The notes under the pieces are model-generated. The model did no database searches, had not been told where the DNA came from, and saw nothing but the letters and a program-made list of their open reading frames with translations. From NCBI GenBank assembly GCA_965644265.1, contig OZ286460.1, forward strand, positions 19,654,001-19,718,000: a stretch of DNA of 64,000 bases, read 5' to 3'. Made by a program: the position numbers and the translations under genes. The stretch's first letter is position 1, and every line of letters starts with the position of its first letter. This stretch comes from Glycera tridactyla (Eukaryota). Below are positions 17,325 to 64,000 of this stretch, piece by piece.

Positions 17325-18401
17325 AACAAGGCCACAGAGGGGCAAGATACCCCGCACACGGGAGCACAGTGGGTAACCCATATCGCACACGGGAGGACGG
17401 TGGGTAACCCATACCGGAAAAGGTCATTGAGATGTTTGGTTGGCTACGTAATAAATCACTGGATCACTGTGTAGAATAACAGTAGCACCTGAAACCTTCA
17501 CCTCGACCAATGACTCAGGGTCACATGCATTGTAAGGGAGATGTTGTTACATTGTTACATCACTTGATCATCCCAGATCAGTTTGATCTTTATCCAACAA
17601 TGCTAGCCTGAGTTATTGTGTGAGACGTGGAAATTTAAAAATAGCTCCTATGGCCTTGACCTTTGACCCTAGGTCACACGCACCGAATGGGAGATATCTC
17701 ACCATTGGGTCATAACATTGTGCAACTTTGGTGCATATCAATCAATGCAAGCTTGAGCTGGAGTGTAAAATGAGAAAAAGTTATGAATAGCTCCTGTGAC
17801 CTAGACCTTTGACCTAGGGTCACATGCATTGAAAGGGAGGTGGCCCACCATTGGGTCATTACTAGGTGTAAGTTTGGTGCATATCCACCAAATCTAGCTC
17901 AGGTTAGAGTGTGAAATGAGAAAATCTATAAATAGCTCCTGTGACCTTGATCTTTGACCTAGGGTCACATGAATCGAAAGGGAGGTGGCCTACCATTAGC
18001 TCATTACTTTCTGTAAGGTTGGTGCATATCCATCGAAGCTAGCTCGGTTTAGAGTGTAAAATGAGAAAATCCATAAATAGCTCCTGTGACCTTGACCTTT
18101 GACCCAGGGTCACATGCATCGAAAGGGAGGTGGCCCACCATTGCGTCATCACTTCGTGTAAGTTTGGTGTATATCCATTGAGGCTAGCTCGAGTGTAAAA
18201 TAGGAAAATCTATAAATAGCTCCTGTGACCTTGACCTCTGACCTTTGGGTACAAAAATCAAATTCTCGTATACGATTTTTACATAGATCACAGTTATGAA
18301 GTTTTATAGAAATCGGACCAGCCAATCCAAAGTTATTGCATGAAATGTGAACGGAGGTGAAACTATAATACCCCGCTTTTTCAAGAGCGGGGTATAAAAA
18401 A
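17325..18401 (+). mobile_element. Helentron-associated non-autonomous element (HINE-like) with central ~145-bp tandem array
   Basis: 5' AACAAG...ATACCCCGC (17347-17355); 3' hairpin ATACCCCGCT-N8-AGCGGGGTAT (18368-18395) then an A-run; array units start at 17641, 17787, 17932, 18077, 18216 and contain TGACCTTGACCTTTGACC. Confidence 0.8.
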
Positions 18402-46374: not shown

Positions 46375-46456
46375 CTGAAATAATGATTCTGATGATGATG
46401 AAAATAGGAGACAATGATATATTGATGAATATTATCAGCCAACCAGTCTGTTCCAA

Positions 46457-46660
46457 TGTGGAGAAATTTAGTCAATAAACTGGACAATATCACTCACTTA
46501 TTGTGACGTTGCGGCTAGAACCTCTAGCCTTTGACGGACTGTTTACTCTTCGAGTTGTCAAGTGATAGACGACGGGAGTCTGTCGAAGGCTAGAGGTTCT
46601 AGCCGCAACGTCACAACAAGTGAGTGATATTTTCCAGTTTATCGACTAAATTTCTCCACA
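46457..46660. repeat. Fold-back palindromic element (84-bp arms, 36-nt loop)
   Basis: 46457-46540 is the reverse complement of 46577-46660 with only a few mismatches. Confidence 0.92.
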
Positions 46661-46742
46661 CAGGAGATATTCAGGCAACATATACTTAATTATTGCATAC
46701 ACACACATAAGCACGCACACAAGCATGCACACACACCTGCAA

Positions 46743-46799: not shown

Positions 46800-47597
46800 C
46801 TGGTGGACGTGTGCTGAATCAGCTATCGCTAATGGCTCATTGGGATTTGATCAGAATAACAAGATTTCATCGGGACTCAATCATTATAACAAGATGGAAA
46901 GTAATCAGTGAGTAAGAAGATTGGACAAAACAAGTTGGTGATAAAAGTCAGGACCAGCAAGGTTGATTAATTAGGGAAAAAGCATTAGGAGAGCTGGGAT
47001 GGAGATGCTGAGTTGTCAAGTCAGGATTGGTCCAGCGGTATGTTGAGAGGTAGCAACGCTGGATGCCAGGCATCTGACGTCATTTTGAAGGACACTGATT
47101 GGTCTGTCACCGGAAATCGAGTAATCATCATTAGTCTATCAAAAAGGTGGTGTAGGCGCTCTAGGAGGGGATTCACATCGGCAGCGCAGGCAGACCAGGA
47201 GGAGAGGTAAAGTGGGCATTCTTGCATGGAGTTATAATGGGCACAAACAGGGATCTGAGGTAAGCTTGACTATTAGAACCATGGACTCCTGAGTAGGTGG
47301 TCACAGAGGAAGGTACTATCTTTTTACCTAAGTTACCTGGGAACACCTGATTATCATTATTATTATTATTATTAGTATGATCTTCAGTGGTCCTGTTATT
47401 TAAGTTTCATCAGACAGCCAGTCATGCACCATGTCAAACGCGATCCTACTCTCACATGAAGCCAAGCAATTGTATGAAATGCTGAATTGATTGATTGATT
47501 GAGTTGATGTTGTAACATTAAACTAATATATAAATGGTATCTCTTTGTCCTTATCACTTTCCTGAAAGAGTATCCTGAAAATCCCTCCAGGATATTT
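46800..47597 (+). repeat. Putative 5' LTR (start not determinable; partner LTR absent from window)
   Basis: Non-coding block immediately upstream of the PBS; contains a CRE, two inverted CCAAT boxes and ATTAAA at ~47515; no second copy found in 63210-64000. Confidence 0.5.
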
Positions 47598-47613
47598 TGG
47601 TGGAGAATCAGGG
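47598..47613 (+). promoter_or_regulatory. Primer-binding site, tRNA-Ala type
   Basis: TGGTGGAGAATCAGGG; TGGTGGAGAAT is complementary to the ...ATTCTCCA-CCA 3' end of eukaryotic tRNA-Ala; located ~540 nt upstream of the gag ATG. Confidence 0.75.
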
Positions 47614-47760
47614 TTTGACGTGCTGACTGTGCTGTATTTTTTGTTATCTTTCTTTGTATTCTTACCATTTTTGCTGGTTATTGCTGGATTCGCTCGTGCG
47701 AGGCGTGGTCCCGTCGTCGGTATGGGTACTGGCGTGCGGACTATTGGGCTGTTGCCGGAG

Positions 47761-47766
47761 GTAAGT
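47761..47766 (+). promoter_or_regulatory. Major splice donor in the retroelement leader
   Basis: GAG|GTAAGT consensus between PBS and gag. Confidence 0.65.
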
Positions 47767-47864
47767 TTCCTGTACCCGCTCATTTGCTAGGGGGTTGGGC
47801 TGTGTTGTGTGCCCGTGTGATTGATTATGGTGTATTTAGGTCGAGCGGTGGTGGAAACTACGGG

Positions 47865-48002
47865 ATGCTCCCTTGTAGTCCATGGATATATTTATTTTTA
47901 ACCTTACTGGCAATTGTAGCCGTCATGATATATATCATGCTGATATCACCTGTTGGTATAATGCCTATGGGCCTGGCAGTTAGTGCTGTTGGAGGACAGT
48001 GA
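47865..48002 (+). CDS. Small upstream hydrophobic ORF (45 aa, one predicted TM helix)
   Basis: MLPCSPWIYLFLTLLAIVAVMIYIMLISPVGIMPMGLAVSAVGGQ; function unknown, may be chance. Confidence 0.3.
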   Translation: MLPCSPWIYLFLTLLAIVAVMIYIMLISPVGIMPMGLAVSAVGGQ

Positions 48003-48136
48003 GGTATTTGTCAAAGGTGTGGGTGTTCTACATGTATTATATGATAGATTTGAGAGGTACGCTATGATGTGGGGTGGAATGTTTGGTGGATTAAGGTCTA
48101 ATATTAGCCGATTATTTACTTATTGGGGTGGTGAGC

Positions 48137-51100
48137 ATGTCGCTAAATGGAATACACGGACGTCGGCGGTCTAGACGCCTGCGTGGCTTAGAACCTTATA
48201 ATATTGACGAGTTTGATTTTGATTTATCTTCACATCACTCTGACCTTAGTCTGAATTTTGAGAATAATTGGGTGGATGTGTCACGGCCCAGCCCTACTGA
48301 TGGAGTGATTTCATTGCCAGATGAATGGTTTAGGGATGTGATACCTATCGGTGAAACTAGGGCGGAGAATAATATTGGAATACCATCCAGACCAGCATCC
48401 GTTGGTGATGTGGCAGTAGTGGATGTTGATTCATGGCCATTGGTGTCTACTGAAGGGTCTATAGTGGTCCGGACACCAGACACGTTAGACACATTGTCTG
48501 AACATTCTGATGACAACGTACTTGTACCTAGACTTGCAGATGGGGATACACTTTGGAATGCTGATGGGACACCTCGAGCTACATCGTCTCCTACATCAAT
48601 AGTGTCAGATGATGTTATCACTGGACCTTTGTTGTATCCAACACGAACAGTACATGGGGAAAGAAATCAGATGCAGAATGATGGGGTGTCACCTAATATG
48701 AATGCCTGGGACTATTCTGTGGGTAGCCCTCATCTTGTAACTCCTCCATTACCTGTTTCTGATTCTGATGCAATGAACCGGGACAGGGGGACACCTGTCT
48801 TGAGTGGCACGGCTTACCGTCCTGTGAGGGTGTCTGATATAAGGGCTACGACTGGTCGTGGCTTGTCTGATACATTGCCTGTTCAAATGTACCCTGAAAG
48901 TGGCTCTCCAGTTGAGTGTACATCTTCTGGTGGTGGGATATCCACGGCTGTTGGTTACATTCAAGGTATGGATAATAGGGCTGGTGGAAACATGGGGACT
49001 GGTGGTAATGTGGGCCCCTATGCTCCAGTGATTCAACCAGGTAGGTTAAATTTAGATGAAGACACGCCGATCAGAGAACCAAAGAACGCATTCGGAGTTA
49101 ATAAATCCACCAGACTTGCTGGGTCTGAGAGAGTGATAAGACCTAAACCAATATTTTTACGGGATCAAACGGTAAGTACCTCAAAACCAGCGGCTGCCTG
49201 GTTGAATACAAACACATCGGTTGTGTCGTCAGGTATGACTGCTATTTGCTCTGTAGCTGAGTCAATTCCTATTTTCCAGAGAGGGAGAGTGAGGGAGCAG
49301 GCAAGTAGATTTGAGGAGCAGGGACGAAATAGATACCACAGTCCAATATCAGCATATGGACAGGAAAGGGTGAGTGGCTCATCAACAGGATTGGTTAATC
49401 AAGACGGTCCTGTTTTTAGCTCAGAAACACTGAGAACACCAGGATCGTTTATATCATCATCTAGAAGGATACGGGTGAGTGAGTCTGGTCTTGATGAAAA
49501 TGTGCTAAACCAACTTCATAGACCAGAATTGTCTGGAATGGGTAATTACCTCGTTGATGCAGACCCTCTGGTGAGTGATGATGTGCATGAAATGTTTAGG
49601 GCATTACCCCGGGAACTATCTCACCCAGCGGCGGTCACACCCCTAGCTAAACCTGCGAAAAGTAAGGTAAGGCAACCTGTCTTTTGCCAAGGCACGAGTG
49701 AAAGAGTAACAACTTTACCGAATAATGCTGGTGAATGCCATAATAAAAAGCGAAAGATACCAGATCAACCAGGTACGGATGATGAGGTGCTGAGACCTGT
49801 GTTCAGGATGCCCCATTTTATAAGTAAAAATCAGGCTAGATGGACAAAAGGAGAGGCCTATTTTACTGGTGAATTCAATGTTGAAGGTAGGCCAGTGTAC
49901 GAATATATGTGGACACCTATAGGTACAAGAGATCCAACTGATCCTGACATGCAGGAGTGGATATATCAACAGTGTAAGGCGGCTGGAAAAATGGCACAAA
50001 AACCCAAACAATCAACGCAAAAACCTGGGGTGAGTTTTGCATCTGATGGCCACATTGGTGGGTGGAGGACAGACAACCAACCACCATCAACCAGCGGCTG
50101 GATTCCACGTAGGCCAGGTGGGTTGAGTAATAGGACTCCTATGAAAACAGGGATACAAAACCCTCCAACACCTGCTAGAGCAGGGGTGGATAAAAATTGG
50201 ATTGATAATCCAGATTACTATGGCAGGGATGTTATTTATAAAGTCACTGATGATGAGCTGTCGGATCCAGACAATGATAGTGAAGAGCCTGTGAGTGACA
50301 GTGATACTGGTGAGTATATAGCCCGACCTCGTAGAAATGAGAGGGGATCACTTAAAGACCGTATGTGTGCCATGATTGGTGACCTGGGTAGATCAGATGA
50401 TGAGGGGGACCGCCAAATTGATAGGTTGGGAAGGAATTCAAATGATAATGACCGTGCCCGGGATGTAAATGATAATTTGCTTCAAAATGTGGGTCATGAC
50501 CAAACTAGACAGGCACACCGACGTGCTAATGTACGGAATGTTCGGAGTCATGAACGAACAGCCGGTGGACAAAGTTTGGGAGGAGACAGACAGAGGTCAA
50601 TTGTAGTGGAAGGGAGTTCATCCATAATAAAATTAGAAAAATTCAACCCGACAAAAATGAACCCATTAGACTGGTTTTCACTTTTCGAAACATATGTGTC
50701 ATACAAAAACCTGTCAAATGAGGATGCTCTGCGAGTTTTTAGATTCAGTGTTGCGGGTGATGTTGCATCATGGTATTCCCTGCTGCCACCTGTGAGGTCG
50801 CTCAGGCAACTGAAAAATGCTTTCGTCAAGGAGTGGGGTGTAGACCCTGAAAAACGCTATGCTTATTTTAACCGATTATGGAAGATGAAGCAGAAGGGGC
50901 GTGACAGCAAGAAATTCATTAGATCAATAGTGAAAAAGGCACGACTGATGTATGGAGTGTCACCTGAGCGTCAATTGAATGAATCTCAACAGGATGAGGT
51001 ATGCAAAATTGTATTGAATGCTCTGGACAAAAGTGTGCGGCAATTTGTGTTAACCCAACGTGCAGAATCCCTAGATGAAATAATAGAAGCGGCCTCTCTA

Positions 51101-51667
51101 GCACAATCACTAGATAGTGGTTCTGAGAAATCCAGTGGGTCTGAAGATGAGTCTTCCTCTGATACTGATGGGGAGGATCGGAAGAAGAAACATAAGAAAA
51201 AGAAAGATAAAAAGAAGGATGATGATAGGGGAAATACATCCAGGGCCATTATGGTCTTGTTGGATGAGATGAAATCTATGAAGACATCATTACCAGATAC
51301 AGTAGCAGAAGCAGTGGGAAAGCAGGCTGCTGAAATTAAAAAGTCAACTGGGACCAGGCCTAAAAAAAATATGAATGATGGCGGAGGGAGTGAGAATCCT
51401 ATACCTCAAAATGGGGGATATAGAAGCAGGATGGGTCAGAGAAATAGCAACGAGAGGGCTAGGTCTGTATGTTACACTTGCCAAAAACCAGGCCATTTTG
51501 CCATTAATTGTCCTGAGAGAGGGAAAGGTGGAGGCAGAAGCAATATGGCTGTTTGTCAGCTATGTGCCCGGACGGGGCATGTAGCACCACAATGTCCCAG
51601 ACTGAACAGGCCAGAGAAACCTGTAGACAGACATTCACATGAACAGAGACAGGGGGAGGACCAATAG
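48137..51667 (+). CDS. gag: Gag polyprotein, 1176 aa from first ATG, with ~830-aa N-terminal extension
   Basis: Capsid-like block from ~50624 (KLEKFN...DWFSLFE...GDVASWY); two CCHC knuckles CYTCQKPGHFAINC and CQLCARTGHVAPQC at 51470-51595. Confidence 0.93.
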   Translation: MSLNGIHGRRRSRRLRGLEPYNIDEFDFDLSSHHSDLSLNFENNWVDVSRPSPTDGVISLPDEWFRDVIPIGETRAENNIGIPSRPASVGDVAVVDVDSWPLVSTEGSIVVRTPDTLDTLSEHSDDNVLVPRLADGDTLWNADGTPRATSSPTSIVSDDVITGPLLYPTRTVHGERNQMQNDGVSPNMNAWDYSVGSPHLVTPPLPVSDSDAMNRDRGTPVLSGTAYRPVRVSDIRATTGRGLSDTLPVQMYPESGSPVECTSSGGGISTAVGYIQGMDNRAGGNMGTGGNVGPYAPVIQPGRLNLDEDTPIREPKNAFGVNKSTRLAGSERVIRPKPIFLRDQTVSTSKPAAAWLNTNTSVVSSGMTAICSVAESIPIFQRGRVREQASRFEEQGRNRYHSPISAYGQERVSGSSTGLVNQDGPVFSSETLRTPGSFISSSRRIRVSESGLDENVLNQLHRPELSGMGNYLVDADPLVSDDVHEMFRALPRELSHPAAVTPLAKPAKSKVRQPVFCQGTSERVTTLPNNAGECHNKKRKIPDQPGTDDEVLRPVFRMPHFISKNQARWTKGEAYFTGEFNVEGRPVYEYMWTPIGTRDPTDPDMQEWIYQQCKAAGKMAQKPKQSTQKPGVSFASDGHIGGWRTDNQPPSTSGWIPRRPGGLSNRTPMKTGIQNPPTPARAGVDKNWIDNPDYYGRDVIYKVTDDELSDPDNDSEEPVSDSDTGEYIARPRRNERGSLKDRMCAMIGDLGRSDDEGDRQIDRLGRNSNDNDRARDVNDNLLQNVGHDQTRQAHRRANVRNVRSHERTAGGQSLGGDRQRSIVVEGSSSIIKLEKFNPTKMNPLDWFSLFETYVSYKNLSNEDALRVFRFSVAGDVASWYSLLPPVRSLRQLKNAFVKEWGVDPEKRYAYFNRLWKMKQKGRDSKKFIRSIVKKARLMYGVSPERQLNESQQDEVCKIVLNALDKSVRQFVLTQRAESLDEIIEAASLAQSLDSGSEKSSGSEDESSSDTDGEDRKKKHKKKKDKKKDDDRGNTSRAIMVLLDEMKSMKTSLPDTVAEAVGKQAAEIKKSTGTRPKKNMNDGGGSENPIPQNGGYRSRMGQRNSNERARSVCYTCQKPGHFAINCPERGKGGGRSNMAVCQLCARTGHVAPQCPRLNRPEKPVDRHSHEQRQGEDQ

Positions 51668-54600
51668 GACAGGTCATGGCCACCTGCAGAGAATGTAATA
51701 ATGGCATTGGACAATTATAGCAATCATCATACCAATGTAGGCGGAAATTTAGAAATTATGACATGGGATAGAGAAACAATAAATGCACCTATACAACAGA
51801 ATCTGATACAAATATTGATTAAAAATCGCCTCATAACGGCCATGTTGGACACAGGCGCCAGTGTGTCGGCTGTGGAGAGTGATTTAGTGATGAAGCTACT
51901 CCCTCATACCTATTCTACAAGAAAGAAATATACACAGGGAAAAGTGAAAGATGCCCAGGGAAATTATGTCAAAGTAGACGGGATAGTACAGTTGGATTTT
52001 GAGATCCAAAGTGAGAACTTTAGAATTGATGCTCTTATTGTTGAAAAGTTGCCAGTGACACTAATCTTAGGACTACCATTTTTTGTTGAACATGATGTAA
52101 GATTATCATGGGACTCTGTGAAAATTAGAGGAAATAATGCTGAGATTATTGCAACTCTTGTGCGTACAGTGGACAGCAGAGATAGTTTTAATTTAAAGGT
52201 TTGTTGTGACACGGTATGCGGGTCGTACCAAGCGACAATCCTTGATGTATATGGATCATCCAGGGGATGTGCCAAAGGCAGCCCTGTGTATGAAGACATA
52301 TGGTGTGTGAAGACACATAGGGATTTGGTAGATGGTGAAAATCTGATTGTATCCCCGGCAATTGCATATGTGGGCCCCAGGGGAACAGTTACAATTGAGA
52401 TAATTAACCCTACTTCCAGTGATGTAAGACTGTCCGCTGACCAGATAGTAGCAGTAGGAAAATTGTATGCTAAACCAAGTTCTATGGATAATATGTTGCT
52501 AAAGAACCAAGAACCTGTGAGGGGGATGAACTTAGAATATCCACAGATGACCAGTAATGAAACTCAGATGACCAGTAATGAAACTCAGATGACTAGTAAT
52601 GAAACTCAGATGACCAGTAATGAAACTCAGATGACCAGTAATGAAACTCAGATGACCAGTAATGATACACAGATGACCAGTAATGACTTGCAGATGGCCA
52701 GTAATGAAGCACAGATGACCAGTAATGAAACTCAGATGACCAGTAATGAAACTCAGATGACCAGTAATGAAACTCAGATGACCAGTAATGATACACAGAT
52801 GACCAGTAATGACTTGCAGATGGCCAGTAATGAAGCACAGATGACCAGTAATGAAACTCAGATGACCAGTAATGATACACAGATGACCAGTAATGACTTG
52901 CAGATGGCCAGTAATGAAGCACAGATGACCAGTAATGAGACGTGCACAACCAGTAATGAAACCCAGGTTACCAGTGAGGATGCTCAGATTTCTAGTAATG
53001 ATGCTCAAACAATTGATGCTAGAACTCAGATTATTGATGATGGAGTACAAACTAGTGGTGATATGATTAACCTGATGCAGGTATTACGATCATTTGAACT
53101 GAAAGTACCGCCGGTAATGATTATGATTGAAACCAATGATTTAAGGGTTGTGGCTACACAAACTGAACCAGATATATTGAATCAGACGCGTGTGATAACC
53201 TACAAACCGATTGACTGGCAACAGTATCTAGATGATGACTTGCCTGAGGATGTTTATGAAAAACTTATCAAGGTGTTGGAGTTCCATAGGCCATGTTTTG
53301 CTATGGACTTGTCAGAGTTAGCAAGAGTGAATGATTATGAACATGTTATTGAACTGAAACATGATGCCAAGGTAGTGCACCAAAAACCGTATCGTGTGAC
53401 ACCTGAGAATAGTATAGAAATCGAGAGACAGATAAAAATTTTGCGTGAACATGGGCTAGTAGATTTTAGTGATTCCTACTGGTCGAGCCCTGTGTTATTG
53501 GTAGACAAGAAACCTGATTTCCCTGGAGCACCAATCACCAAAAGACTTTGTATTGATCTGAGGAAATTAAACAGGGAAATTTTACTGAATAGCTTCCCAG
53601 TACTGACGCTCGATGAAATTATTCATCGACTGGCGATAGCTAAACATAAATGGTTTATTAATCTTGATTTGAAATCTGCATATTTCTCTATCCCTTTGTC
53701 ACCAGAAAGTCAACATCTGGTGTCATTTGTTACGCAGAGTGGCTGTTATAAAATGACTTCCTGTCCGTTCGGGTTAAAAAGCTCGCCGAGCAGTTTCTCT
53801 CAGGTGATGATGAGGTGCTTAGCACCATTAGATCAAACCAAGATATTGAACTATATGGATGATATCGTGTTGACAGGAGACACGCCTGAGGATCTCCTGG
53901 AAACATTGAATGCAGTGTGTTGGAGACTCAGGACTGTTGGGTTATCACTCACGCCATCCAAGTGTCATTTCATGAAGAGACAGATAAAATTCTTAGGCCA
54001 AATATTTGATCAGACAGGATGCCGATCAGACTATGCGAAGATAAAAACTGTGGCTATCTTTCCCACCCCGACTGATGTACGAGGAGTGCGTAAGTTGATG
54101 GGATTGTTGAATTGGCAGAGACGGTATATAAACCGATTTAGTCATTATGCATCAGTCCTTTATGAACTCCTTACAAAGGATGCCGAGTTTGAATGGACTG
54201 ATAAGCATCAGAAGGCAATGGACTGGCTGAAAACTCAAGTGCTGGAAAATGTAGTGCTATACTACCCGAAAGTAGACCACCCCTTTGTGATATACACGGA
54301 TGCATCGGCAAGAGCTGTGGGCTCATTAACATTACAGAAGGATGGTGACAGTCAATTGAAACCTGTGGCATTTCTCAGCCACTGCCTATCTAAAGCACAA
54401 CAAAAATATCACTCAAACGAACTGGAAGTTTTAGCAGTTGTTATTGCACTGACACATTTGAAATATTTCATCACAACGGAAACTCCTGTTGAAATCTTCA
54501 CGGATAATGTTACTAATGTATTTTTCCAATCATTGTCTCTGAAAACAGGTCGGCTATTTCGCTATCATCTGTTCTTATCGAGATATAATTTGAAAATCAG

Positions 54601-57499
54601 GTTCACTAATGGGTGGAGAAATCAATGCGCCGACACTTTGAGTAGATTTCCGAATTTGGAAAATTTGGAAGAACTGCAGGATGAAGGACTAGACAACATT
54701 ACACATACAGATATACCGACATCAATCAATTACAAACACACAATACAAACAATAAACTGCATAATGTCTATGGGTGAGCTGACTTCCGATAGCGCTGAGG
54801 TATTTGAATCAGAGTTTGAGGCAGATGAGAGTTCTCTTTGGCAGGTACCTGATAAATACCTTTTGCCAGTCATTTCAGAGTCTGTTTCTGAGAAGAAAGT
54901 AGTACCCCAATGGTCAGATAGATTGGTTACACAAGAAGCAAGTAGTATTGCGAATGAGCGATTATATGACAGGGAATCGGAATTTTGCATGTTTGATAGA
55001 CCAGCTGGGGCACGAGAGGCGGTGACACGGCCTGTTCCGGCTGATAAAGCGAGTCATCCTGGTGGGCAGTCGGATGAAGAACCACCACCGGGAGGGCTGC
55101 CCGAGCATCACGACGAGGGTGTAGATGACACGCAGGCTATAGACGCTCCCCTCGTACCGAGGCCTCGACTGTTATCAGATGAACGGCAGTCAACTGTAAA
55201 CAATCAGAAAGACATGGGAGGTATTAGGGATGCTGATTATGATATCGTGGGTGACGGTATATTTGAGACTGGGGATGAACTGATAAAAAGACAGACAAGA
55301 TTTTGTGAAGGAAGCCCTGAAAACCTATTGCGATTTTTCCGTGATGAACAGACAGATATACGGTTTGAACAAATTGACGACCGCTTGGGGCAAGACTTTG
55401 AAGACCTGCAATTATCATTTTTACATGATACCGCCAAATTGGCTGAAGAACAACATTTAGACAGTGATTTTAAACATATTATTGAGTACAAACAGGCTGG
55501 TGAATTGCCTACCATTAAGAAACAGGCAATGAAGGTGTTGGCTGAAGACCACAAATACTTTTTGGATGAAAATGGAATACTTTACCGCATATATACACAT
55601 TCAAAAGGGAAATCTGCTAAAACATATAGACAATTGTGTCTACCTGCTCAATATCGAGCCAGGATGGCCCATTTATTTCATGATGGACCAATGGCTGGTC
55701 ATAGAGGTTTTGACAAAATGTACACATTGGTGATGCAGTATTTCTACTACCCCAGGTGTTATGAAGAATTGCTGAAGTATTGTCAAACCTGCGAAATTTG
55801 TGCTAAATCAAAGGTCACTCAAGGGCAAGTGAGAGTACCGCTGCAAATTAGAGAAGCTCCTGTATATATATTTGACACAGTACACATCGATTTTTTGAAG
55901 TTATATAAGACACGTGACGGATATGTATATGTTTTATCTATGATTGATCGGTTCACACATTGGGCGGAATTAGTACCCACTAAAGATCAATTAGCAAAGA
56001 CAACAGCTTTAGCTGTCGTGCGAGAATGGATATTTCGCCATGGCTTAATGAGATGCATTATTTGTGACCGATCTATGTCATTCATGGGGCAAGTATTCAG
56101 AAATATTTTGAAATTACTCAAGGTAAGAATGATTTTCATTTCACATATGAACCCAAAAAGTAATAGCCGGGTGGAAACACTTAATCGGTTGGTAATATCT
56201 AAACTGAGAGCGTCCTTACAACAAGTTTCACATACAGATTGGACAGAATTACTACCTGCAGTGGCATTCACATTGAACACGACTCCACTGCCTTGTGGCT
56301 TTTCACCATATCAATTGGTGTGTGCTAAATCACCAAATTTGGGGAGTCAAATGCTTCTAACTGATCCCTCCATGATACCTGAGGATCCAAGAGAAGTCAT
56401 CCGGGAATTGTGGGGAGATTTAGCAATTATTCGTATGGAGGCTCAGAAAAATATGCTTGAACTCGATAAAGCCATGAAAGCTAGGTATGATCGGAAATAT
56501 AGAACTAAACCTGATGAATTTCGTGAGGGAGATCTAGTGTGGCTGGTGGCACCACACACCATCCTGGTGGGTCAGGGCAAGCTGAAATCAAAGAAACTGG
56601 GCCCATTTGAAATTGCATGTAGGGTGGCCCCCACATTGGTTCAATTATGCCTGGTTGATTCGGCAGTGTGGTTGCCATCATTGACCAGCACCAGCAGGTT
56701 AGTGCCATACGTACATCCTGTTAATTCATCATTACGTATGCAATTACAAACTGAAGTAAAAATTAATAAGAAACATGAGCGCTTTGCAAATTTGGGACGA
56801 GTTGAGTGGGAACAGGAACTAAATGAGAATGATGATGTGACAGGTAACTTACCCATAAATGATGATGAAAACGCTTCACAGGATGTGGCTGACCAATGTA
56901 ACTCCCCACCGTTATTGGATAGTGGCGAAGGTGTGGATGATGTGCCTCAAAGAATGGTGTCCTCGACATCTGGTGATGGAGGGGTGTCCAATAGTCGAAG
57001 AAATGTACAAACTGTATGTGAATCCACAGTGATATCCGGTGTTGGAATGTCTCATGGTGGGCACACAAAAATAACAGAAATGTCAGATAGTGGAATAATT
57101 GACCCACCAGCTCAACCTACGGCCAGTCATATAATTCACTCTGATGACGTCCAAAATGATGCGGATGCGGATGATGGAAATGAGAGAGCTGTTGCTTCTC
57201 AAAAATGTAGATCAAAACGTAAATATTTACAAATGTACAATCGTGCAAAAATATATGGTAACCGATTGGCTGCTACTTCCCGGGGCAAGCCTACTAGCAA
57301 TGTCAAACAAAAAGTGGCTGGAGTATCCAAAAGTGATTTGGCCAAGGATATAGTAAAACTGCTTGCATCAAGGAAAAGTAAAGATGGTACGAGGAGTTTT
57401 GAGTGTTTGTACGCGACTCATCCTAGGTCATGGCTGAAGGAGTCCTTGATCCCGACAGTTTTTATCGACGATTATGATTATCGGCACCGGGTGAAATGA
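51668..57499 (+). CDS. pol: Pol polyprotein (protease, RT, RNase H, integrase), same frame as gag after a single TAG
   Basis: LDTGAS (D at 51848); RT YMDD (53852); RNase H YTDAS/ELE/FTDN (54299 onward); IN HHCC (55679-55801), D-D-E core (first D 55889), GPF (56600). Confidence 0.97.
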   Translation, partial: DRSWPPAENVIMALDNYSNHHTNVGGNLEIMTWDRETINAPIQQNLIQILIKNRLITAMLDTGASVSAVESDLVMKLLPHTYSTRKKYTQGKVKDAQGNYVKVDGIVQLDFEIQSENFRIDALIVEKLPVTLILGLPFFVEHDVRLSWDSVKIRGNNAEIIATLVRTVDSRDSFNLKVCCDTVCGSYQATILDVYGSSRGCAKGSPVYEDIWCVKTHRDLVDGENLIVSPAIAYVGPRGTVTIEIINPTSSDVRLSADQIVAVGKLYAKPSSMDNMLLKNQEPVRGMNLEYPQMTSNETQMTSNETQMTSNETQMTSNETQMTSNETQMTSNDTQMTSNDLQMASNEAQMTSNETQMTSNETQMTSNETQMTSNDTQMTSNDLQMASNEAQMTSNETQMTSNDTQMTSNDLQMASNEAQMTSNETCTTSNETQVTSEDAQISSNDAQTIDARTQIIDDGVQTSGDMINLMQVLRSFELKVPPVMIMIETNDLRVVATQTEPDILNQTRVITYKPIDWQQYLDDDLPEDVYEKLIKVLEFHRPCFAMDLSELARVNDYEHVIELKHDAKVVHQKPYRVTPENSIEIERQIKILREHGLVDFSDSYWSSPVLLVDKKPDFPGAPITKRLCIDLRKLNREILLNSFPVLTLDEIIHRLAIAKHKWFINLDLKSAYFSIPLSPESQHLVSFVTQSGCYKMTSCPFGLKSSPSSFSQVMMRCLAPLDQTKILNYMDDIVLTGDTPEDLLETLNAVCWRLRTVGLSLTPSKCHFMKRQIKFLGQIFDQTGCRSDYAKIKTVAIFPTPTDVRGVRKLMGLLNWQRRYINRFSHYASVLYELLTKDAEFEWTDKHQKAMDWLKTQVLENVVLYYPKVDHPFVIYTDASARAVGSLTLQKDGDSQLKPVAFLSHCLSKAQQKYHSNELEVLAVVIALTHLKYFITTETPVEIFTDNVTNVFFQSLSLKTGRLFRYHLFLSRYNLKIRFTNGWRNQCADTLSRFPNLENLEELQDEGLDNITHTDIPTSINYKHTIQTINCIMSMGELTSDSAEVFESEFEADESSLWQVPDKYLLPVISESVSEKKVVPQWSDRLVTQEASSIANERLYDRESEFCMFDRPAGAREAVTRPVPADKASHPGGQSDEEPPPGGLPEHHDEGVDDTQAIDAPLVPRPRLLSDERQSTVNNQKDMGGIRDADYDIVGDGIFETGDELIKRQTRFCEGSPENLLRFFRDEQTDIRFEQIDDRLGQDFEDLQLSFLHDTAKLAEEQHLDSDFKHIIEYKQAGELPTIKKQAMKVLAEDHKYFLDENGILYRIYTHSKGKSAKTYRQLCLPAQYRARMAHLFHDGPMAGHRGFDKMYTLVMQYFYYPRCYEELLKYCQTCEICAKSKVTQGQVRVPLQIREAPVYIFDTVHIDFLKLYKTRDGYVYVLSMIDRFTHWAELVPTKDQLAKTTALAVVREWIFRHGLMRCIICDRSMSFMGQVFRNILKLLKVRMIFISHMNPKSNSRVETLNRLVISKLRASLQQVSHTDWTELLPAVAFTLNTTPLPCGFSPYQLVCAKSPNLGSQMLLTDPSMIPEDPREVIRELWGDLAIIRMEAQKNMLELDKAMKARYDRKYRTKPDEFREGDLVWLVAPHTILVGQGKLKSKKLGPFEIACRVAPTLVQLCLVDSAVWLPSLTSTSRLVPYVHPVNSSLRMQLQTEVKINKKHERFANLGRVEWEQELNENDDVTGNLPINDDENASQDVADQCNSPPLLDSGEGVDDVPQRMVSSTSGDGGVSNSRRNVQTVCESTVISGVGMSHGGHTKITEMSDSGIIDPPAQPTASHIIHSDDVQNDADADDGNERAVASQKCRSKRKYLQMYNRAKIYGNRLAATSRGKPTSNVKQKVAGVSKSDLAKDIVKLLASRKSKDGTRSFECLYATHPRSWLKESLIPTVFIDDYDYRHRVK
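52544..53005 (+). repeat. In-frame 21-nt tandem repeat in pol (QMTSNET x19 plus ~3 degenerate units)
   Basis: Unit CAGATGACCAGTAATGAAACT, read directly; variant block NDT/NDL/ASNEA recurs three times. Confidence 0.97.
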
Positions 57500-57715
57500 C
57501 GCTGATTGATTGTTTGTGACATACGTAATGAATATATGATAGTAATTGTCTAATGGTGTGCGCTTACAGTGATGTGTTCACATATATATATATATATATA
57601 AATATATATAAAAGTGTCTATACTAGGTGTCCTTATGTTTGTTCACAAGTCATGAATGGCAAGAAAAATGGAAATGCATGTCAGAAGGCTGCTGCCATCA
57701 TGATACTGCCCACAT

Positions 57716-59122
57716 TTATAGATTGTTTTGGCCATTCTCGATGTTGATGGCGCTGGCCAGGGATGTGAGCGCTCGGCGGTTTCGGTTGTGTGGACGGCTA
57801 CGGCGGGCTAGCTGTGTGCGTCGGATGATGGGTCGAGATTCCTGCGCCATGGGTCGGATTGTCATTACAAGCCTCCGTCTTGGTGGGTTGGCTGGAGGCT
57901 GATGTGGATAATCTGAGCCACCGTGATTGGTCTCTGACACGGATTCCGTGACTTCATTCGCTGCAACGGCCTGGTCTTGCGTAATGTAGTCAACGGCCAT
58001 CCGTGTGGATATTGTCATGTCATTTGTACTCAGATCCATGGGTGACCCTTGGGGGGATGATGGAGCTGAATGGGGGTGACTGGAGGGGCTGCCCTCTGGT
58101 GTCCTCTCAGATTGGGGGGTCTCCGATTCCCCGAAGAATCTGTAGATGGGGTACATTCCTGTGGGTGACTGGGATACCCTGGGATTTGTACCTGATGTGG
58201 ATGTCTCCAGAGTCGGGTCCTCATATTGGGTGGCAACACTGGTGTATGTTGTCTCCACTTGGGTACCTTGGTCAACGGTACCTGGTGAGGTGGTTGGGCC
58301 ACTTGTGGGAATGCGTGGGTTGGTTGACCTGTTATGGTGATAGGCTGCAGTGCGTACCTGGGAAGGGTGTAGGTGTGACTGGTTGTTCATCATGAGGGTG
58401 GATGGAGCACTGGGCATTGCCGCAGTGTTAGTTAGCAAGGTCGAGGATGATCCAGGGTGTGTAGCCCATGTTGGGGGCATGGGTACAACTTGGGTTGGAT
58501 ACCCACTGTTGTATGGATATCCTGATCTTGCACGCCCGATGTGTGGTGGTATCACACATTCAAGTCGACCAGTTGTCCAGTACTCCCGTACCGCATTGAT
58601 CAATGGGTGACACGGTTGAATGTCGTACATACCATGAAAATGGATGCGGGAATGCAGTTCGATATATTCAGTCTGGTCATGAATGGTGAGGGCGAGTACC
58701 GAGAACGACCTTGGTGTCGAGAAGACATGATGCAGCAGGGCTCTGGCCCCTTCGTCCTGCATTGGATGTCGGCTGCGCTGGCGTCCATACACTTGTAGAA
58801 AATGATCGGCACCCACTTCCCGGATAGTAGGTGCGCTCACATACTTATATTGCAGTAATTTCTTCATTGCAAGGCAGAACCGAGTGTTCCGCTCGACTTG
58901 CATCTCGGTAGGTTGGTAGAAGGTTACGATCTGTGACTCCGTCATGATGTTTGATGTCAGTTTGTCTTGGATGATGAAATGAGTATCAACAGGAACAACT
59001 GTGATGAGTGTGTGGTAGGGTGTAGATCCAAGTGAGGAATGATCTGCAGAGGTGAGTATCTCGAAATGTGGCATCAGGGGGAGGAGCTGATTCTGATTGG
59101 AAATCAGTGAGTGGTGAGTCAT
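57716..59122 (-). CDS. Antisense accessory ORF of the retroelement, 468 aa, unknown function
   Basis: 1407-nt uninterrupted ATG-initiated frame filling the pol-env gap, with no long sense ORF opposite it; ordered-looking N-terminal ~190 aa, S/T/P-rich disordered C-terminus, Arg-rich tail. Confidence 0.85.
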   Translation of the reverse strand: MTHHSLISNQNQLLPLMPHFEILTSADHSSLGSTPYHTLITVVPVDTHFIIQDKLTSNIMTESQIVTFYQPTEMQVERNTRFCLAMKKLLQYKYVSAPTIREVGADHFLQVYGRQRSRHPMQDEGARALLHHVFSTPRSFSVLALTIHDQTEYIELHSRIHFHGMYDIQPCHPLINAVREYWTTGRLECVIPPHIGRARSGYPYNSGYPTQVVPMPPTWATHPGSSSTLLTNTAAMPSAPSTLMMNNQSHLHPSQVRTAAYHHNRSTNPRIPTSGPTTSPGTVDQGTQVETTYTSVATQYEDPTLETSTSGTNPRVSQSPTGMYPIYRFFGESETPQSERTPEGSPSSHPHSAPSSPQGSPMDLSTNDMTISTRMAVDYITQDQAVAANEVTESVSETNHGGSDYPHQPPANPPRRRLVMTIRPMAQESRPIIRRTQLARRSRPHNRNRRALTSLASAINIENGQNNL

Positions 59123-59189
59123 GATTGGGGAGTTGGACGCTGTGAAATGAAAAGTGCATGGGGTAAGTTTATGGTGTTTTTTTTTTATA
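59123..59189 (-). promoter_or_regulatory. Candidate minus-strand splice acceptor (AG at 59141-59140) and TATAAAA (59189-59183) upstream of the antisense ORF
   Basis: Minus strand reads gTATAAAAAAAAAAcacc...cttac...cacttttcatttcacAG|cgtccaactccccaatcATG. Confidence 0.55.
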
Positions 59190-59625
59190 CAGTGATAAGA
59201 CGTAATAGTGGGAGCCCAAATGGATTGGACAGGTGGGCAGGTAGGTTGTTGGGGTCGTAGATTACGACATCACTGTGGCACAGGTGGTCGAATGATTAAA
59301 GGGGGGTCAGTTAGTTGGTGATGATGGTCTGACTTGATGTAAAGTAGACCATTGTATGTATGTCTACTCGATGCATAGTGGATATTGGTGAAACGGAGCT
59401 TCAGCTAGGAGCTGTGGAGGTGTAAGATTGAAGCCGAGGGTAATTAATCAACATGATGGAAAGTGAATGGTAGTTGCTCATGGCGGAGAGCTATAGAAAA
59501 TGGGGTGAGGCTTAATCAGACCGTTTAGAGAATTAAATTGGGCAGATGGAAGAAGTATAAATGAGAGACGATGGACGACGGCACGGGAGGCGACTGTATG
59601 ATTAATCACGCAGGATACGCGTGGC

Positions 59626-59644
59626 CTCTGTTTTATGTTTTCAG
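59626..59644 (+). promoter_or_regulatory. Splice acceptor for subgenomic env mRNA
   Basis: ctctgttttatgttttcAG|G, 4 nt before an in-frame ATG (59649) and 49 nt before the signal-peptide Met (59694). Confidence 0.65.
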
Positions 59645-59648
59645 GAAT

Positions 59649-62600
59649 ATGTGTGATGACCGCCTGAGTGAGCACGACATGGCCGGGAAGGAGATGTACC
59701 CAACGTTAATTGTGTTAATAGTCACGTATGTAAATGTAATTAGTGTAAATAGTCAGATGAGTGAAGGTATAGGTGGTGACAATGTCCTGAATTATGGTGT
59801 TTGGTTTGCACCAAAAGGCAGTTATCAAATATCAAATGAGAATTATCATTTGATATTGGCGGTAGATATACCTGGATTGAGAGGTGGTGATGAAAATGTT
59901 AAAGCCAGGTGTAATATGGGAGAGAAAGGGAAGTCTTGTCAAGGGAAGAAATTGCAAGCTGTAATAACACAGTTGAACAGAGGCAAGAGACTTATCGATG
60001 ATAGTACCTGCCAATTGTTTGAAACAATAGTAGATGAGATAGATACCTACGAGTTAGAGATGGACCAACGTTTGGCCAGAGTGATGCTGACTACAGACTA
60101 TGCATGGTGGGTGGATGATGTGATGCGGAATAAATATGAGAAAGTGCTGAAATCTAAAACAATTAAAAAGAAGTCAAGACAACGAGAAAGGGCAGATGAT
60201 GCCTACTGGTTGATGAGTATAACTAATGAAAATGAGACTGGTGAAGTGCAGACAGAAAAAAATTTGCAGCTAGGACATGGGACCAAGAATAGGCCACGGA
60301 AGGGGGTTGGCTATATCGAGACGCCTGTCATCAAGCTGAAGAAGGGCCATGTGAAGACGCCAGTGAAACACTTACTGGTGGCTGGGAGGCGATGGCAGCA
60401 ACAAATAGCTGACAATTGTGTTTATACAAATATATCTGAGTGGGGTGAGGATGTGGGTACTTCTCCAAGTGATTCTTCTGTTGCAGACAGTTTGCAGAAA
60501 CTACATGGGTTACTGATGGCTGTCCAGAAAAAGGTTACAAATTCTGTACTAAAGGATATTGGAATATTCAATGAATCAGAATGGATGAAGTGGTCTAGTT
60601 CCCAAGAAATATCTCGAGACATGCAGAATATGGTTGTTGATTGGGTGTGGCGAATTCAAAATGAAATACCTCCTAAAAAGTTGCAATTGGAATTGATTCC
60701 ATTATTGCGAAAACTGGGTGTGTACAGTCATCAATTAGCCAGAGAAAGGAAAAATACAGCCCGAGTTTCCGAAAGATATCTGAATAAAACTGTCATAACC
60801 CGACTAATTGAATCCTTGGACCACTTGGCAAATTTACGACTTGTGAATCAGAATGTAGTGGATATGCAGAGATTTCGAAAGCGGATTCGACGACTATGGG
60901 TTCGCATGAATATGGCACTGAACCAACAAGACCAAATGCCGTTGCATTGGTCCACTATTAAAAGTGATATGTGGGAATCGCTATTTGGTTCAGCTACGTT
61001 TGCTCAAGTTGACGAAATAATTCATGTGATTAACGGTGTCACCAACAATAGTAGTAATCGACGGGAAATTCGGAAATCGTATTTCGCGAACACCACTGCG
61101 TATATTACAGTGTCTTCGAGAATGGCCATCGAGTTTAAACGTGTGGTGAGACGTCTGAAAATGGCCATCGGCCTGTTGAGTGATCAGTCGGAGATGGAGG
61201 GGGAATATGACATAAATGCCATGTCATATATAATAAACAAAGCCACCAATATAGCCATAGGACTATCATTAGTCCGTTCAAAAATCGAGCACTTTGCAGA
61301 TGGTCTCCGAGAATTGCTCAAGGGAAAATTGACACCTCAAATAATCTCGGAAGATGATTTGCAAGAAGCATTGATACAGCTGGAAATAGAGCTGAGGGCA
61401 AGAGAGTCAAGGTTTCATGTTCTGACATTTGACTCTGCCCACTATTATTCAATTAAGAACATTGCTCATGTAAGAAATCAAAACCAGTTAATAATTGTAT
61501 TACCAATAGAAGTAACTAGACAGTCTCAAAATTTTCATTTATACCAGTTATCAGTATATGACATTCCAGTCAATAGCATTGAGAATTTGACTTCACGATT
61601 GGTTTCGGATATTGCAATAGTAGGGTTAAGCGAGTCAAAAACAAGGTTCATACAACTCACACATCAACAATGGATGTTATATGACAAAGAAAATAAATGG
61701 ATAAGCAACAGTGATATTCAAGTGTATAATCATGAGAATCTTACATGTGAAATGGCTCTATTCTGGAACAAGATGGTAGAGGTTAAGAAGTTATGTGAAT
61801 TCAGATTAGAACAAAAGCCGCTACAAATGAAATTGCACATCCTACCTAGGGGTGAATTGGTAGTCATGAATGCCGAAGAACTGATAGTGGCTTGTCAAGA
61901 CCGCCCCTATGTGAGGAAATCAGGGTGTGAAGTCTGCATACACCCACTAAAATGTGGATGTGAATATGTGGGTAGATTAAAGGATGATAGATTGGTGATC
62001 AACTCGAGAATGACAAAATGTGTGACTGAAGTAGAGAAGAGGCCACCCAAAACCATACTTCATATGTCTATCATACAGTATCTAGTACCTGAGGAATGGT
62101 TGCTGGGTGATGGTAGTGAAATTCATAGACAGAAAGACAATATCCCTGATATACCACTCAGGGTTAATCAGGGGCATTATGAGCAGTCAATATGTGGGCC
62201 AATTGAGTTTTCAATGAACCTTGAGAAGGCATTGGATAGGGTAAAAGCAGGTGAAAAATTATCACCAATTCAGCAGATTGATTGGGCATCCTGGAAAATA
62301 ATTCATGTTTCAGACTTTTTCACATTATCCACATGTGTCAGTATGGGTGAATGGGTATTGAGCACAGTGATAGTACTGGCTCATGTAAGAACAGCTCGAA
62401 GAGTGAATGAATTGGCACAGAGGGTTAATGGCATCATCATAATGAATCAACTTCGAGCAGCTAGGGCTATGAATGTTTTGGTTGGAATGAATACAAACAT
62501 GACAGAAACAAATAGATCAAATGCAGGGGGTGAGATAATTAGCCAGCGTGAGGGTATATTACTTCTGTTGCTGGTAGTCATTATACAACTTGCAATTGTG

Positions 62601-63209
62601 TTGGTGTGTCTTTTGAAATACTGTTTGAAAGTACAACCACATTCAGAAATAGCATGGGTCGTTTTGACATTACGAGGTAGGGATAAGTGTACAGTTAAGG
62701 TTAAGAAGCTCTATTGTGCCCCTCATGCGATTCGAATGCTAGCAGAAGGACCGCCCTCAGATATTAGATTAATTGGTCCCATACTTAAATCGAAATTATA
62801 TGTCTACTGGGGAAACAGGGAATTGATAGATAACGGAAATGGGGTCATTTATTACCTACCAAATGTGATTGATATTTCTATGTCAAGAGGACTACGAATT
62901 GCAGCCCTACTCAGAGAAACCTATCAAGTCACAGTTGACATTGTGTACAGGGATCGAGAGGGAAAATGGACTGCAGGGAATCGGTTGAGGTGTGATGAAC
63001 CTACAGAGGTTCACCCATATGTCAGAGAAAACAGTAATAGTAGTAGGCAGAATAGAATTCGAGAAGAACTACCACCTCCTTATGAACTTCATCAGCTTCG
63101 AAATCTCCGAAGCACTACCCGGGAAGGCCGGATTATGTTAAGCCCATTACCTTCGAGTTCATCAGATAGCGACCAATCAACAGAACGAGGACATACCAGA
63201 ACCAATTAA
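59649..63209 (+). CDS. env: Envelope-like glycoprotein (F-type/class I fusion-like), ~1170-1190 aa
   Basis: Signal-like MYPTLIVLIVTYVNVISVNS; LNYGVWF-x(11)-HLILAVDIP N-terminal motif; polybasic RFRKRIRR; SLFGSAT; GKLTPQIIS; Cys cluster; two C-terminal hydrophobic segments. The open frame extends up to ATG 59571. Confidence 0.85.
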   Translation: MCDDRLSEHDMAGKEMYPTLIVLIVTYVNVISVNSQMSEGIGGDNVLNYGVWFAPKGSYQISNENYHLILAVDIPGLRGGDENVKARCNMGEKGKSCQGKKLQAVITQLNRGKRLIDDSTCQLFETIVDEIDTYELEMDQRLARVMLTTDYAWWVDDVMRNKYEKVLKSKTIKKKSRQRERADDAYWLMSITNENETGEVQTEKNLQLGHGTKNRPRKGVGYIETPVIKLKKGHVKTPVKHLLVAGRRWQQQIADNCVYTNISEWGEDVGTSPSDSSVADSLQKLHGLLMAVQKKVTNSVLKDIGIFNESEWMKWSSSQEISRDMQNMVVDWVWRIQNEIPPKKLQLELIPLLRKLGVYSHQLARERKNTARVSERYLNKTVITRLIESLDHLANLRLVNQNVVDMQRFRKRIRRLWVRMNMALNQQDQMPLHWSTIKSDMWESLFGSATFAQVDEIIHVINGVTNNSSNRREIRKSYFANTTAYITVSSRMAIEFKRVVRRLKMAIGLLSDQSEMEGEYDINAMSYIINKATNIAIGLSLVRSKIEHFADGLRELLKGKLTPQIISEDDLQEALIQLEIELRARESRFHVLTFDSAHYYSIKNIAHVRNQNQLIIVLPIEVTRQSQNFHLYQLSVYDIPVNSIENLTSRLVSDIAIVGLSESKTRFIQLTHQQWMLYDKENKWISNSDIQVYNHENLTCEMALFWNKMVEVKKLCEFRLEQKPLQMKLHILPRGELVVMNAEELIVACQDRPYVRKSGCEVCIHPLKCGCEYVGRLKDDRLVINSRMTKCVTEVEKRPPKTILHMSIIQYLVPEEWLLGDGSEIHRQKDNIPDIPLRVNQGHYEQSICGPIEFSMNLEKALDRVKAGEKLSPIQQIDWASWKIIHVSDFFTLSTCVSMGEWVLSTVIVLAHVRTARRVNELAQRVNGIIIMNQLRAARAMNVLVGMNTNMTETNRSNAGGEIISQREGILLLLLVVIIQLAIVLVCLLKYCLKVQPHSEIAWVVLTLRGRDKCTVKVKKLYCAPHAIRMLAEGPPSDIRLIGPILKSKLYVYWGNRELIDNGNGVIYYLPNVIDISMSRGLRIAALLRETYQVTVDIVYRDREGKWTAGNRLRCDEPTEVHPYVRENSNSSRQNRIREELPPPYELHQLRNLRSTTREGRIMLSPLPSSSSDSDQSTERGHTRTN

Positions 63210-64000
63210 TTTAATCATCGCGAAGAATGATGTGACAGTATATATGGACATGTCGGGAGTAAATCACATTGACGTGAGCGAAGAACCCCCCCCCCCCCTT
63301 TTCCAGTCATGGGATGGGGAACCATGGAGCATCAATTATCAGCAGCCTAGTCATGAGCGTGGTGAGGAGAGACATCTGGTGGGGCATACTGGAAGTACGC
63401 TTGGATAGCCAGCCAGATTGTCTCTATATAGTTGTGATTAGCACTCAGTTGTACATAATGAATACGCATATAATATATATATACAGCACCTGTCATAAAG
63501 TGGTATGGCACTGCACTTCACATTAGTTGAACAACATGAGACCACGCGTAGAGACCAAGTGGTGACCTCTCACCAATATAGTATTTGATCAGACACGCGC
63601 ATATCATGAGTTAATGTATTCAGGGGAGTAATCAACTTGGATACCACAATCGCACATCGATGGGTGGAGCATCAGCACACCTTCCAATGAGCAGTGATGA
63701 GAAGGCGGGGACTGTGTACGGAAAGTGAAGCATTCGTTGAGGCAGCAGAGCGGAACGATCATGCATACCAATTGAAGGCCATCATTCTTGACTGTATTTG
63801 TGAAAGCTCTAAGGACTTGAAACTTCTGCAAAAGTGATGGAGTGAATCACAAGTGTATGGTGTGGTGGTGTGATGTACTTTAGTCGGTGATGGTATGACC
63901 AAGGGTGAGGTTTCATGGTTAATGACACTAGCAGAGACTAATGAACTGAGGTGAAAAGTGCCATGAATGGTGATGACATAGATACATTTTCTATAAGACT

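Follow-up and report, generated by a model that had tools for sequence, protein, structure and literature searches.

Introduction

Env-bearing retrotransposons of the Ty3/gypsy type are an ancient and common group, and the catalogued ones are simple three-gene elements of roughly 7–13 kb. A survey of such elements across animals (PMC13524379; Chary and Hayashi, eLife 2026) lists 1,512 intact copies from most phyla, with F-type members numerous in annelids and molluscs; its prefilters were set at 1 kb for the gap between pol and env and at 10 kb for pol and env together, and pairs of long terminal repeats (LTRs) more than 14 kb apart were excluded. Here, we describe an element of this group in 64,000 nucleotides of Glycera tridactyla DNA (assembly GCA_965644265.1, contig OZ286460.1, positions 19,654,001 to 19,718,000 of the forward strand), a stretch referred to below as the window. 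It is probably a single, recently inserted Ty3/gypsy retrotransposon with an F-type env, which would represent a divergent lineage with inflated proteins, carry an antisense accessory gene between pol and env, and lie in an intron of a PLC-beta gene.

The element shares with the errantiviruses of PMC13524379 the gag-pol-env order, a gypsy pol with a single RNase H, an F-type env, a primer-binding site (PBS) for tRNA-Ala, which is also described there for F-env elements of annelids, molluscs and corals, and an invertebrate host. By its pol, PBS and env fold it belongs to the F-type env-bearing gypsy elements, i.e., to the “errantiviruses” in the operational sense of that survey. However, on the +6 kb convention of the survey's table it measures 21,073 nt, against 17,964 nt for the largest of the 200 of 1,512 rows compared, which were counted by eye and among which no annelid or mollusc element reaches 15.8 kb. 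Its pol-env gap of 2,071 nt and its 11.5 kb of pol plus env both fall outside the prefilters. The main text of the survey makes no mention of antisense ORFs (open reading frames) or readthrough, whereas this element has an antisense ORF and an in-frame TAG between gag and pol; likewise, the furin site and fusion peptide are called highly conserved there, whereas the fusion-peptide segment is atypical here. What is new is the size and the antisense gene that stands free in the pol-env gap. The sequence-only reading of this stretch had taken an env-bearing gypsy element outside insects as a surprise, but such elements are already listed in the same survey. That the host genome is that of a non-insect invertebrate, as the same reading had proposed, appears correct; its repeat types, and the annelid, mollusc and coral elements with this class of PBS, would point to a marine one.

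Several other systems resemble the element in part. Burro/GYPSM1 of planarians is likewise a very large gypsy element of animals, has accessory ORFs and shows F-like homology in its env, but it exceeds 30 kb and its env lies within a 4,873-aa polyprotein between gag and pol instead of in a separate downstream gene; the visible length of the present element is below the 20-kb threshold used there for “giant” elements, and no apoptosis or ubiquitin Pfam domains of the Burro type were detected in its proteins (PMC6431247). More generally, ORFs are known to be captured into the interval between pol and env (PMC6431247). Gypsy elements of the plant Tat clade (Grande, RIRE2, Retand) are also long and carry a homologue-less antisense ORF downstream of pol, for which a nuclear regulatory role was proposed; however, as described in PMC7264820, they live in plant hosts and have no F-type env downstream, and no sequence relation to the present element is shown. 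The invertebrate env-bearing gypsy elements Tor4b of Oikopleura (PMC4402516) and the LTR elements of bdelloid rotifers (PMC5408684) have a pol-env spacer or extra ORFs, but the Tor spacer carries an internal env promoter, the rotifer extra ORFs are in sense orientation, and the available text of both papers reports no antisense coding gene. The HBZ gene of human T-cell leukaemia virus type 1 (HTLV-1) is a minus-strand gene in the 3′ half, to which the antisense ORF with its candidate acceptor and the cyclic AMP response element (CRE) in the putative LTR of the present element can be likened; this is an analogy only, as HTLV-1 belongs to the Retroviridae and HBZ is a bZIP protein (PMC10186651). 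A search of the literature, with Repbase and subscription journals outside its scope, found no antisense protein-coding ORF between pol and env of an animal gypsy element.

Organization and coding capacity of the element

The element occupies the plus strand from position ~46,801 to the end of the window at 64,000, where it is truncated by the window edge. The very large size claimed from sequence alone therefore stands as a lower bound: the visible 17,200 nt are a minimum, and the total is estimated at ~18 kb or more, provided that an LTR follows beyond the window. Under the standard code, the 64 kb contain 10 stop-to-stop frames of at least 150 codons. The element accounts for all four long ones, namely 48095–51667, 51668–57499 and 59565–63209 on the plus strand and 59269–57716 on the minus strand. 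Counted from ATG they encode a Gag of 1176 aa, a Pol of 1932 aa (1943 codons from the preceding stop), an antisense protein of 468 aa and an Env of 1212 aa, and 15,073 nt separate the start of gag from the stop of env. These are the sizes given in the sequence-only reading, whose env of ~1190 aa is close to the 1170–1186 aa or so obtained from the likelier starts M27–M42.

The pol gene (51668–57499, plus strand) identifies the element as gypsy. Pfam recognized protease (PR), reverse transcriptase (RT), RNase H (RH), integrase zinc finger, integrase (IN) core and SH3 domains in gypsy order, and the full layout reads PR, an unassigned domain of 135 aa, a 7-aa tandem repeat, RT, RNase H, an acidic bridge, IN, SH3 and a tail of 270 aa. 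Every expected catalytic residue was found (PR D61; RT D667, D731 and D732; RH D878, E920, D946 and D989; the HHCC motif and D1408-D1467-E1503 of IN), in agreement with the earlier claim of intact motifs. The closest solved structure is the Ty3 Gag-Pol (E 1e-76), far ahead of the RTs of murine leukaemia virus (MLV) and foamy virus (E 1e-31 to 1e-20), and all named RT matches are gypsy-type elements. The single RNase H has all four catalytic residues, and no match to a second one was found in the bridge of ~331–350 aa between RH and IN. The nearest pol relative, P0002, is 48% identical over RT-RH and was paired with the element in a tree of 121 sequences (support 0.995), a tree that holds no labelled clade references. 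Together with this pol, the gypsy domain order, the Ty3 structure match and the F-type env described below uphold the earlier description of an env-bearing gypsy element.

Upstream lies gag (48137–51667, plus strand; 1176 aa), which comprises a low-complexity N-terminal extension of ~800 aa, a weakly capsid-like region (~830–1000) and two CCHC knuckles (Pfam zf-CCHC, E 3e-8, with matches to retroviral nucleocapsids); the capsid region gave only a weak match (E 0.001) to one gag-pol among 120 proteins, and none in Pfam. Its stop codon, TAG at 51665–51667, is in frame with pol, which follows directly, and readthrough may be deduced from the same in-frame layout known in gammaretroviruses (PMC5009743). 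Inflation affects every protein of the sense strand: the N-terminus of Gag, a 21-nt in-frame tandem repeat of ~22 copies between PR and RT in Pol (52544–53001, plus strand; 7-aa unit), the RH-IN bridge and an insertion in Env. The bridge is 350 aa here and 420 aa in P0002, against a median of 120 aa (75 measured of 120 matches), and near env homologues also have long insertions; inflation therefore appears to be a trait of the lineage. Within the 21-nt array, four types of unit recur as a higher-order block, and this pattern points to recent unequal expansion. A dUTPase-like domain considered for the segment between PR and RT found no support in Pfam or among homologues.

The PBS (47598–47612, plus strand) is an exact and unique 15-nt match to the complement of the tRNA-Ala 3′ end, taken from the tRNA table in supplement 1 of PMC13524379 with CCA added; its chance expectation is ~2e-4 for 190 motifs over 1.3 kb, or 0.015 for the 12-mer alone. 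Directly 5′ of it lies a putative 5′ LTR of ~0.8 kb (46801–47594, plus strand), proposed from a switch in strand composition (GC skew from ~0 in the host to +0.2), from its motifs and from its position; its start adjoins a CA microsatellite and is uncertain, and its end is deduced from the PBS. A motif scan of this segment found a CRE palindrome (47075), four reverse CCAAT boxes, TATA-like sites and ATTAAA (47517), a content that would fit an LTR. The deduced LTR end differs from the usual CA, and a 7-bp inverted repeat at 47571–47594 forms a U5-stem-like hairpin right before the PBS. CG..CG termini with a 3-bp target site duplication (TSD) are described for Troyka (PMC12440569). A consensus donor in the leader, 150 nt past the PBS (47759–47765, plus strand), is the candidate major splice donor. 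On the other side, a 3′ untranslated region of at least 791 nt (63210–64000, plus strand) retains the strand bias of the element up to the window edge; no polypurine run of 11 or more and no copy of the 5′-end sequence were found in these 791 nt, and the 3′ LTR is therefore beyond the window or absent.

The env gene (59571–63209, plus strand) encodes a homologue of class I fusion proteins of the F type. Although a word-indexed homologue search returned 0 matches, a full HMMER search recovered 625 relatives (E<=0.001) with 17–29% identity, and Baculo_F was found in 17 of the 50 homologues scanned. A profile of 100 sequences matched a solved “fusion protein” (E 1e-23). An AlphaFold model of the ectodomain built with 90 sequences (mean pLDDT 69, core above 90) retrieved the pneumovirus F proteins of respiratory syncytial virus and human metapneumovirus from the PDB, with E about 2e-6 and low TM-scores of 0.2–0.36, and baculovirus F along with other class I glycoproteins from BFVD. 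The protein has a signal peptide (~41–62), a long N-terminal insertion, a dibasic motif (438–441), LFG (471), heptad repeats, a weak membrane segment near 913–932, a strong transmembrane (TM) segment at 994–1017, a conserved cytoplasmic domain and a PPPY motif, and all eight family-conserved cysteines are kept. With a signal peptide, an F-fold ectodomain and a TM anchor encoded in its third ORF, the element has an Env homologous to the F-type fusion proteins (baculovirus/paramyxovirus-like). Of the three acceptor-like sites between 57.5 and 59.7 kb, one (59628–59644, plus strand) lies 4 nt before an in-frame ATG (M27, 59649) and is a candidate env acceptor; together with the leader donor it suggests a spliced env message joining 47,759 to 59,644. 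The insertion brings the distance from NYG to LFG to 397 aa, against a median of 108 aa (63 of 150 matches), and long N-terminal insertions also occur in five of the closest homologues, with 200–370 aa in several near ones.

Six sequences related to this Env (P0125, P0126, P0128, P0131, P0133 and P0136) are long F-type envelopes whose extended N-terminal region bears two or three furin motifs; such envelopes may form a subfamily cleaved at several sites. Among predicted structures, the segment encoded by 59754–62330 is best matched by A0A145VUZ2, an uncharacterised abalone herpesvirus protein in BFVD (E 7e-19, 801 aa, 13% identity), whose length is typical of invertebrate errantivirus F-env proteins; an F gene may have passed between such elements and a herpesvirus of molluscs. 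Further down the BFVD ranking are proteins of ranid herpesvirus.

The gap between pol and env holds the antisense ORF (57716–59122, minus strand), which overlaps no sense gene. It counts 517 codons from stop to stop, while the other five frames over it contain 16–26 stops. The longest open stretch produced by 500 order-2 Markov simulations of the gap had 374 codons (median 152), and the length of the ORF, which none of them attained, is therefore beyond chance. Its four-fold degenerate sites carry the plus-strand C depletion of the element, and this shared bias points to long residence and not to a fresh insert. The predicted protein consists of ~200 ordered-looking N-terminal residues, a middle rich in Pro, Ser and Thr and an Arg-rich C-terminus; because of the Arg-rich tail and the disordered middle, it would most likely act in the nucleus, regulating the element or host silencing. 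Upstream signals (59123–59189, minus strand), which are motifs only, comprise a TATA-like box 67 nt (59189) and a pyrimidine tract with an AG end 17 nt (acceptor-like, 59141–59140) ahead of the ATG.

Unity and age of the insertion

Strand composition ties these parts together. GC skew, about 0 in the host, turns to an excess of G over C on the plus strand near 46.8 kb and holds to 64,000 (+0.13 to +0.53 in the element vs. −0.04 in the host), and because this depletion of C runs unbroken through the leader, all the ORFs, both spacers, the antisense ORF and the 3′ untranslated region, the element can be regarded as one unit. The only N-runs of the window, 24694–24896 and 40275–40464, are assembly gaps and both lie off the element. 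As for age, an unbroken coding length of 14,397 nt would have a 5% chance of surviving 0.45% neutral divergence if only stops are counted, or 0.18–0.26% if indels are included; the copy is therefore young or under selection, and its young appearance, noted from the start, corresponds to less than ~0.2–0.45% of neutral decay. The element is real and coherent and its insertion probably recent.

Contrary evidence and alternative explanations

A number of observations weigh against this reading, the first of which concern the fusion function of Env and speak against a plainly infectious element, which the sequence-only reading had held possible. In the homologues, a basic cleavage motif is followed by a hydrophobic peptide of ~12 residues ending in LFG (94 of 99 aligned). 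Here, the segment before LFG is polar, with a hydropathy of −1.05 vs. 0.67 +/− 0.43 in the 99 homologues; of 100 aligned sequences, only one is more polar in this place. The segment also has no adjacent basic site, whereas 94 of the 99 have one. The dibasic motif, RIRR, lies 30 aa ahead of LFG instead of about 12 and is placed by AlphaFold inside a long helix, and the first membrane segment is weak. It is thus a sizeable possibility, if the lesser one, that the element is as described but its Env is not, or never was, a fusogen, serving instead in, e.g., receptor interference or attachment while the element moves only within the cell. Against this, RIRR aligns with the furin sites of the 12 nearest homologues, so that the peptide would be ~17 residues longer rather than the site missing; P0125, a close homologue, has a long non-canonical peptide too; and the conserved cysteines, the signal peptide and the TM anchor are all intact.

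The antisense ORF raises the next set of difficulties. Its codon-position structure is weak (chi2 15, p 0.017, against 82–187 for the other three, longer ORFs), and its protein has no homologue among 5.8 billion proteins searched (lengths 257–819) or, for residues 40–230, in the ESM Atlas. No match was found in PDB sequences, Pfam, plasmids or the element's own Gag, the best of 271 stored proteins gave E 0.07, and neither bZIP nor any other domain was detected. A single-sequence model was unusable (pLDDT 33), and a fold search on that model gave only Z below 5, which is uninformative. With its sense also that of the PLC-beta transcript, the ORF might be a passenger, i.e., a captured host or viral fragment or the remnant of a nested insertion, in an otherwise ordinary large errantivirus. 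We consider this unlikely, though not negligibly so, given its 517 open codons (no simulation went beyond 374), the C depletion at four-fold sites that implies long residence, the lack of terminal repeats flanking the ORF and its own TATA-like and acceptor-like signals. As the ORF has the sense of the PLC-beta pre-mRNA and the acceptor-like site lies just ahead of its ATG, host transcripts could also take it up by splicing, as a cryptic exon.

Two further points bear on pol and its expression. The tree of 121 sequences lacks labelled references for placing the element in a clade within gypsy. Behind the TAG, no stable structure that might stimulate readthrough was found (z 0.67; 158 of 200 shuffles fold as well), and the TAG could therefore be served by splicing or be a lesion.

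Finally, the window holds no LTR pair (no repeat above 13–15 nt), no TSD and no second copy of the element. The missing closing LTR, together with a pol and an env that share no common named relative by which their linkage could be checked, might be explained by a chimera of nested elements or by a misassembly. This is improbable, for PBS, gag, pol and env are collinear on one strand with a donor and an acceptor placed as for a spliced env, and the element has no internal terminal repeats, no N gaps and a uniform strand bias.

A true complex retrovirus or an element of the Loki or Odin type endogenised in an invertebrate is the least credible alternative and is largely refuted: the in-frame gag/pol TAG as in gammaretroviruses (PMC5009743), the F-type env as in lokiretroviruses, the accessory antisense gene and the two zinc knuckles would suit it, but Retroviridae, lokiretroviruses and Odin are defined by a dual RNase H, i.e., a degenerate tether plus a new RH (PMC9040795), and are excluded because the element has one catalytically complete gypsy-type RNase H and none in the bridge, so that, with an RT nearest Ty3 and an atypical fusion-peptide segment, the “complex-retrovirus architecture” of the sequence-only reading survives as an analogy only.

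Proposed life cycle and significance

For a single F-type env-bearing gypsy element, the following cycle can be proposed. The 5′ LTR would drive a genomic RNA of ~17 kb. Translation of this RNA would normally stop at the single TAG, yielding Gag, and would occasionally read through it to give Gag-Pol. Reverse transcription would be primed by tRNA-Ala. Env, presumably a membrane glycoprotein of the F fold, would come from a spliced RNA joining the leader donor at 47760 to the acceptor at 59644. The antisense ORF would be an accessory gene resident in the element and expressed independently from the minus strand; its product would most likely be a nuclear regulator, as proposed for the antisense ORFs of plant Tat/Retand elements and shown for HBZ of HTLV-1. 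A bolder and doubtful extension of this scheme is that the element is the first-seen member of a lineage of invertebrate errantiviruses of 18 kb and more, missed by length-filtered surveys, with readthrough Gag-Pol, a spliced Env of non-canonical activation and a conserved HBZ-like antisense regulator, which would still be mobile and pass between cells, the plan of complex retroviruses having evolved independently.

At 17.2 kb or more, and with an antisense gene as its fourth, this intact element extends the group to sizes and layouts that current search filters exclude. It can serve to test whether animal gypsy elements, plant Tat elements and deltaretroviruses acquired antisense accessory genes by convergence, and its odd fusion-peptide region bears on whether the Env proteins of such invertebrate elements are fusogens.

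Host locus and other features of the window

Just outside the element, a PLC-beta exon encoding part of the Y domain lies at 46323–46374 on the minus strand, followed by the exon for the end of that domain (45821–45975, minus strand). Farther on, near 32.6 kb, lies a C-terminal exon. A motif search up to 64,000 did not detect the preceding Y-domain exon, and the element therefore most likely sits in the PLC-beta intron upstream of the 46323–46374 exon, in the opposite orientation. No related loci were found in phages or prokaryotic genomes. The same intron contains, ~135 nt from the retroelement, an element resembling a miniature inverted-repeat transposable element (MITE) at 46452–46665, with terminal inverted repeats of 89 nt that are 92% complementary; the only Rfam result was a sub-threshold hairpin match to it. 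Elsewhere, the window contains a 145-nt tandem array of 4.3 copies (17631–18244), dispersed 33-nt repeats (13356–15126) and, across 1–46 kb, several short inverted-repeat MITE families.

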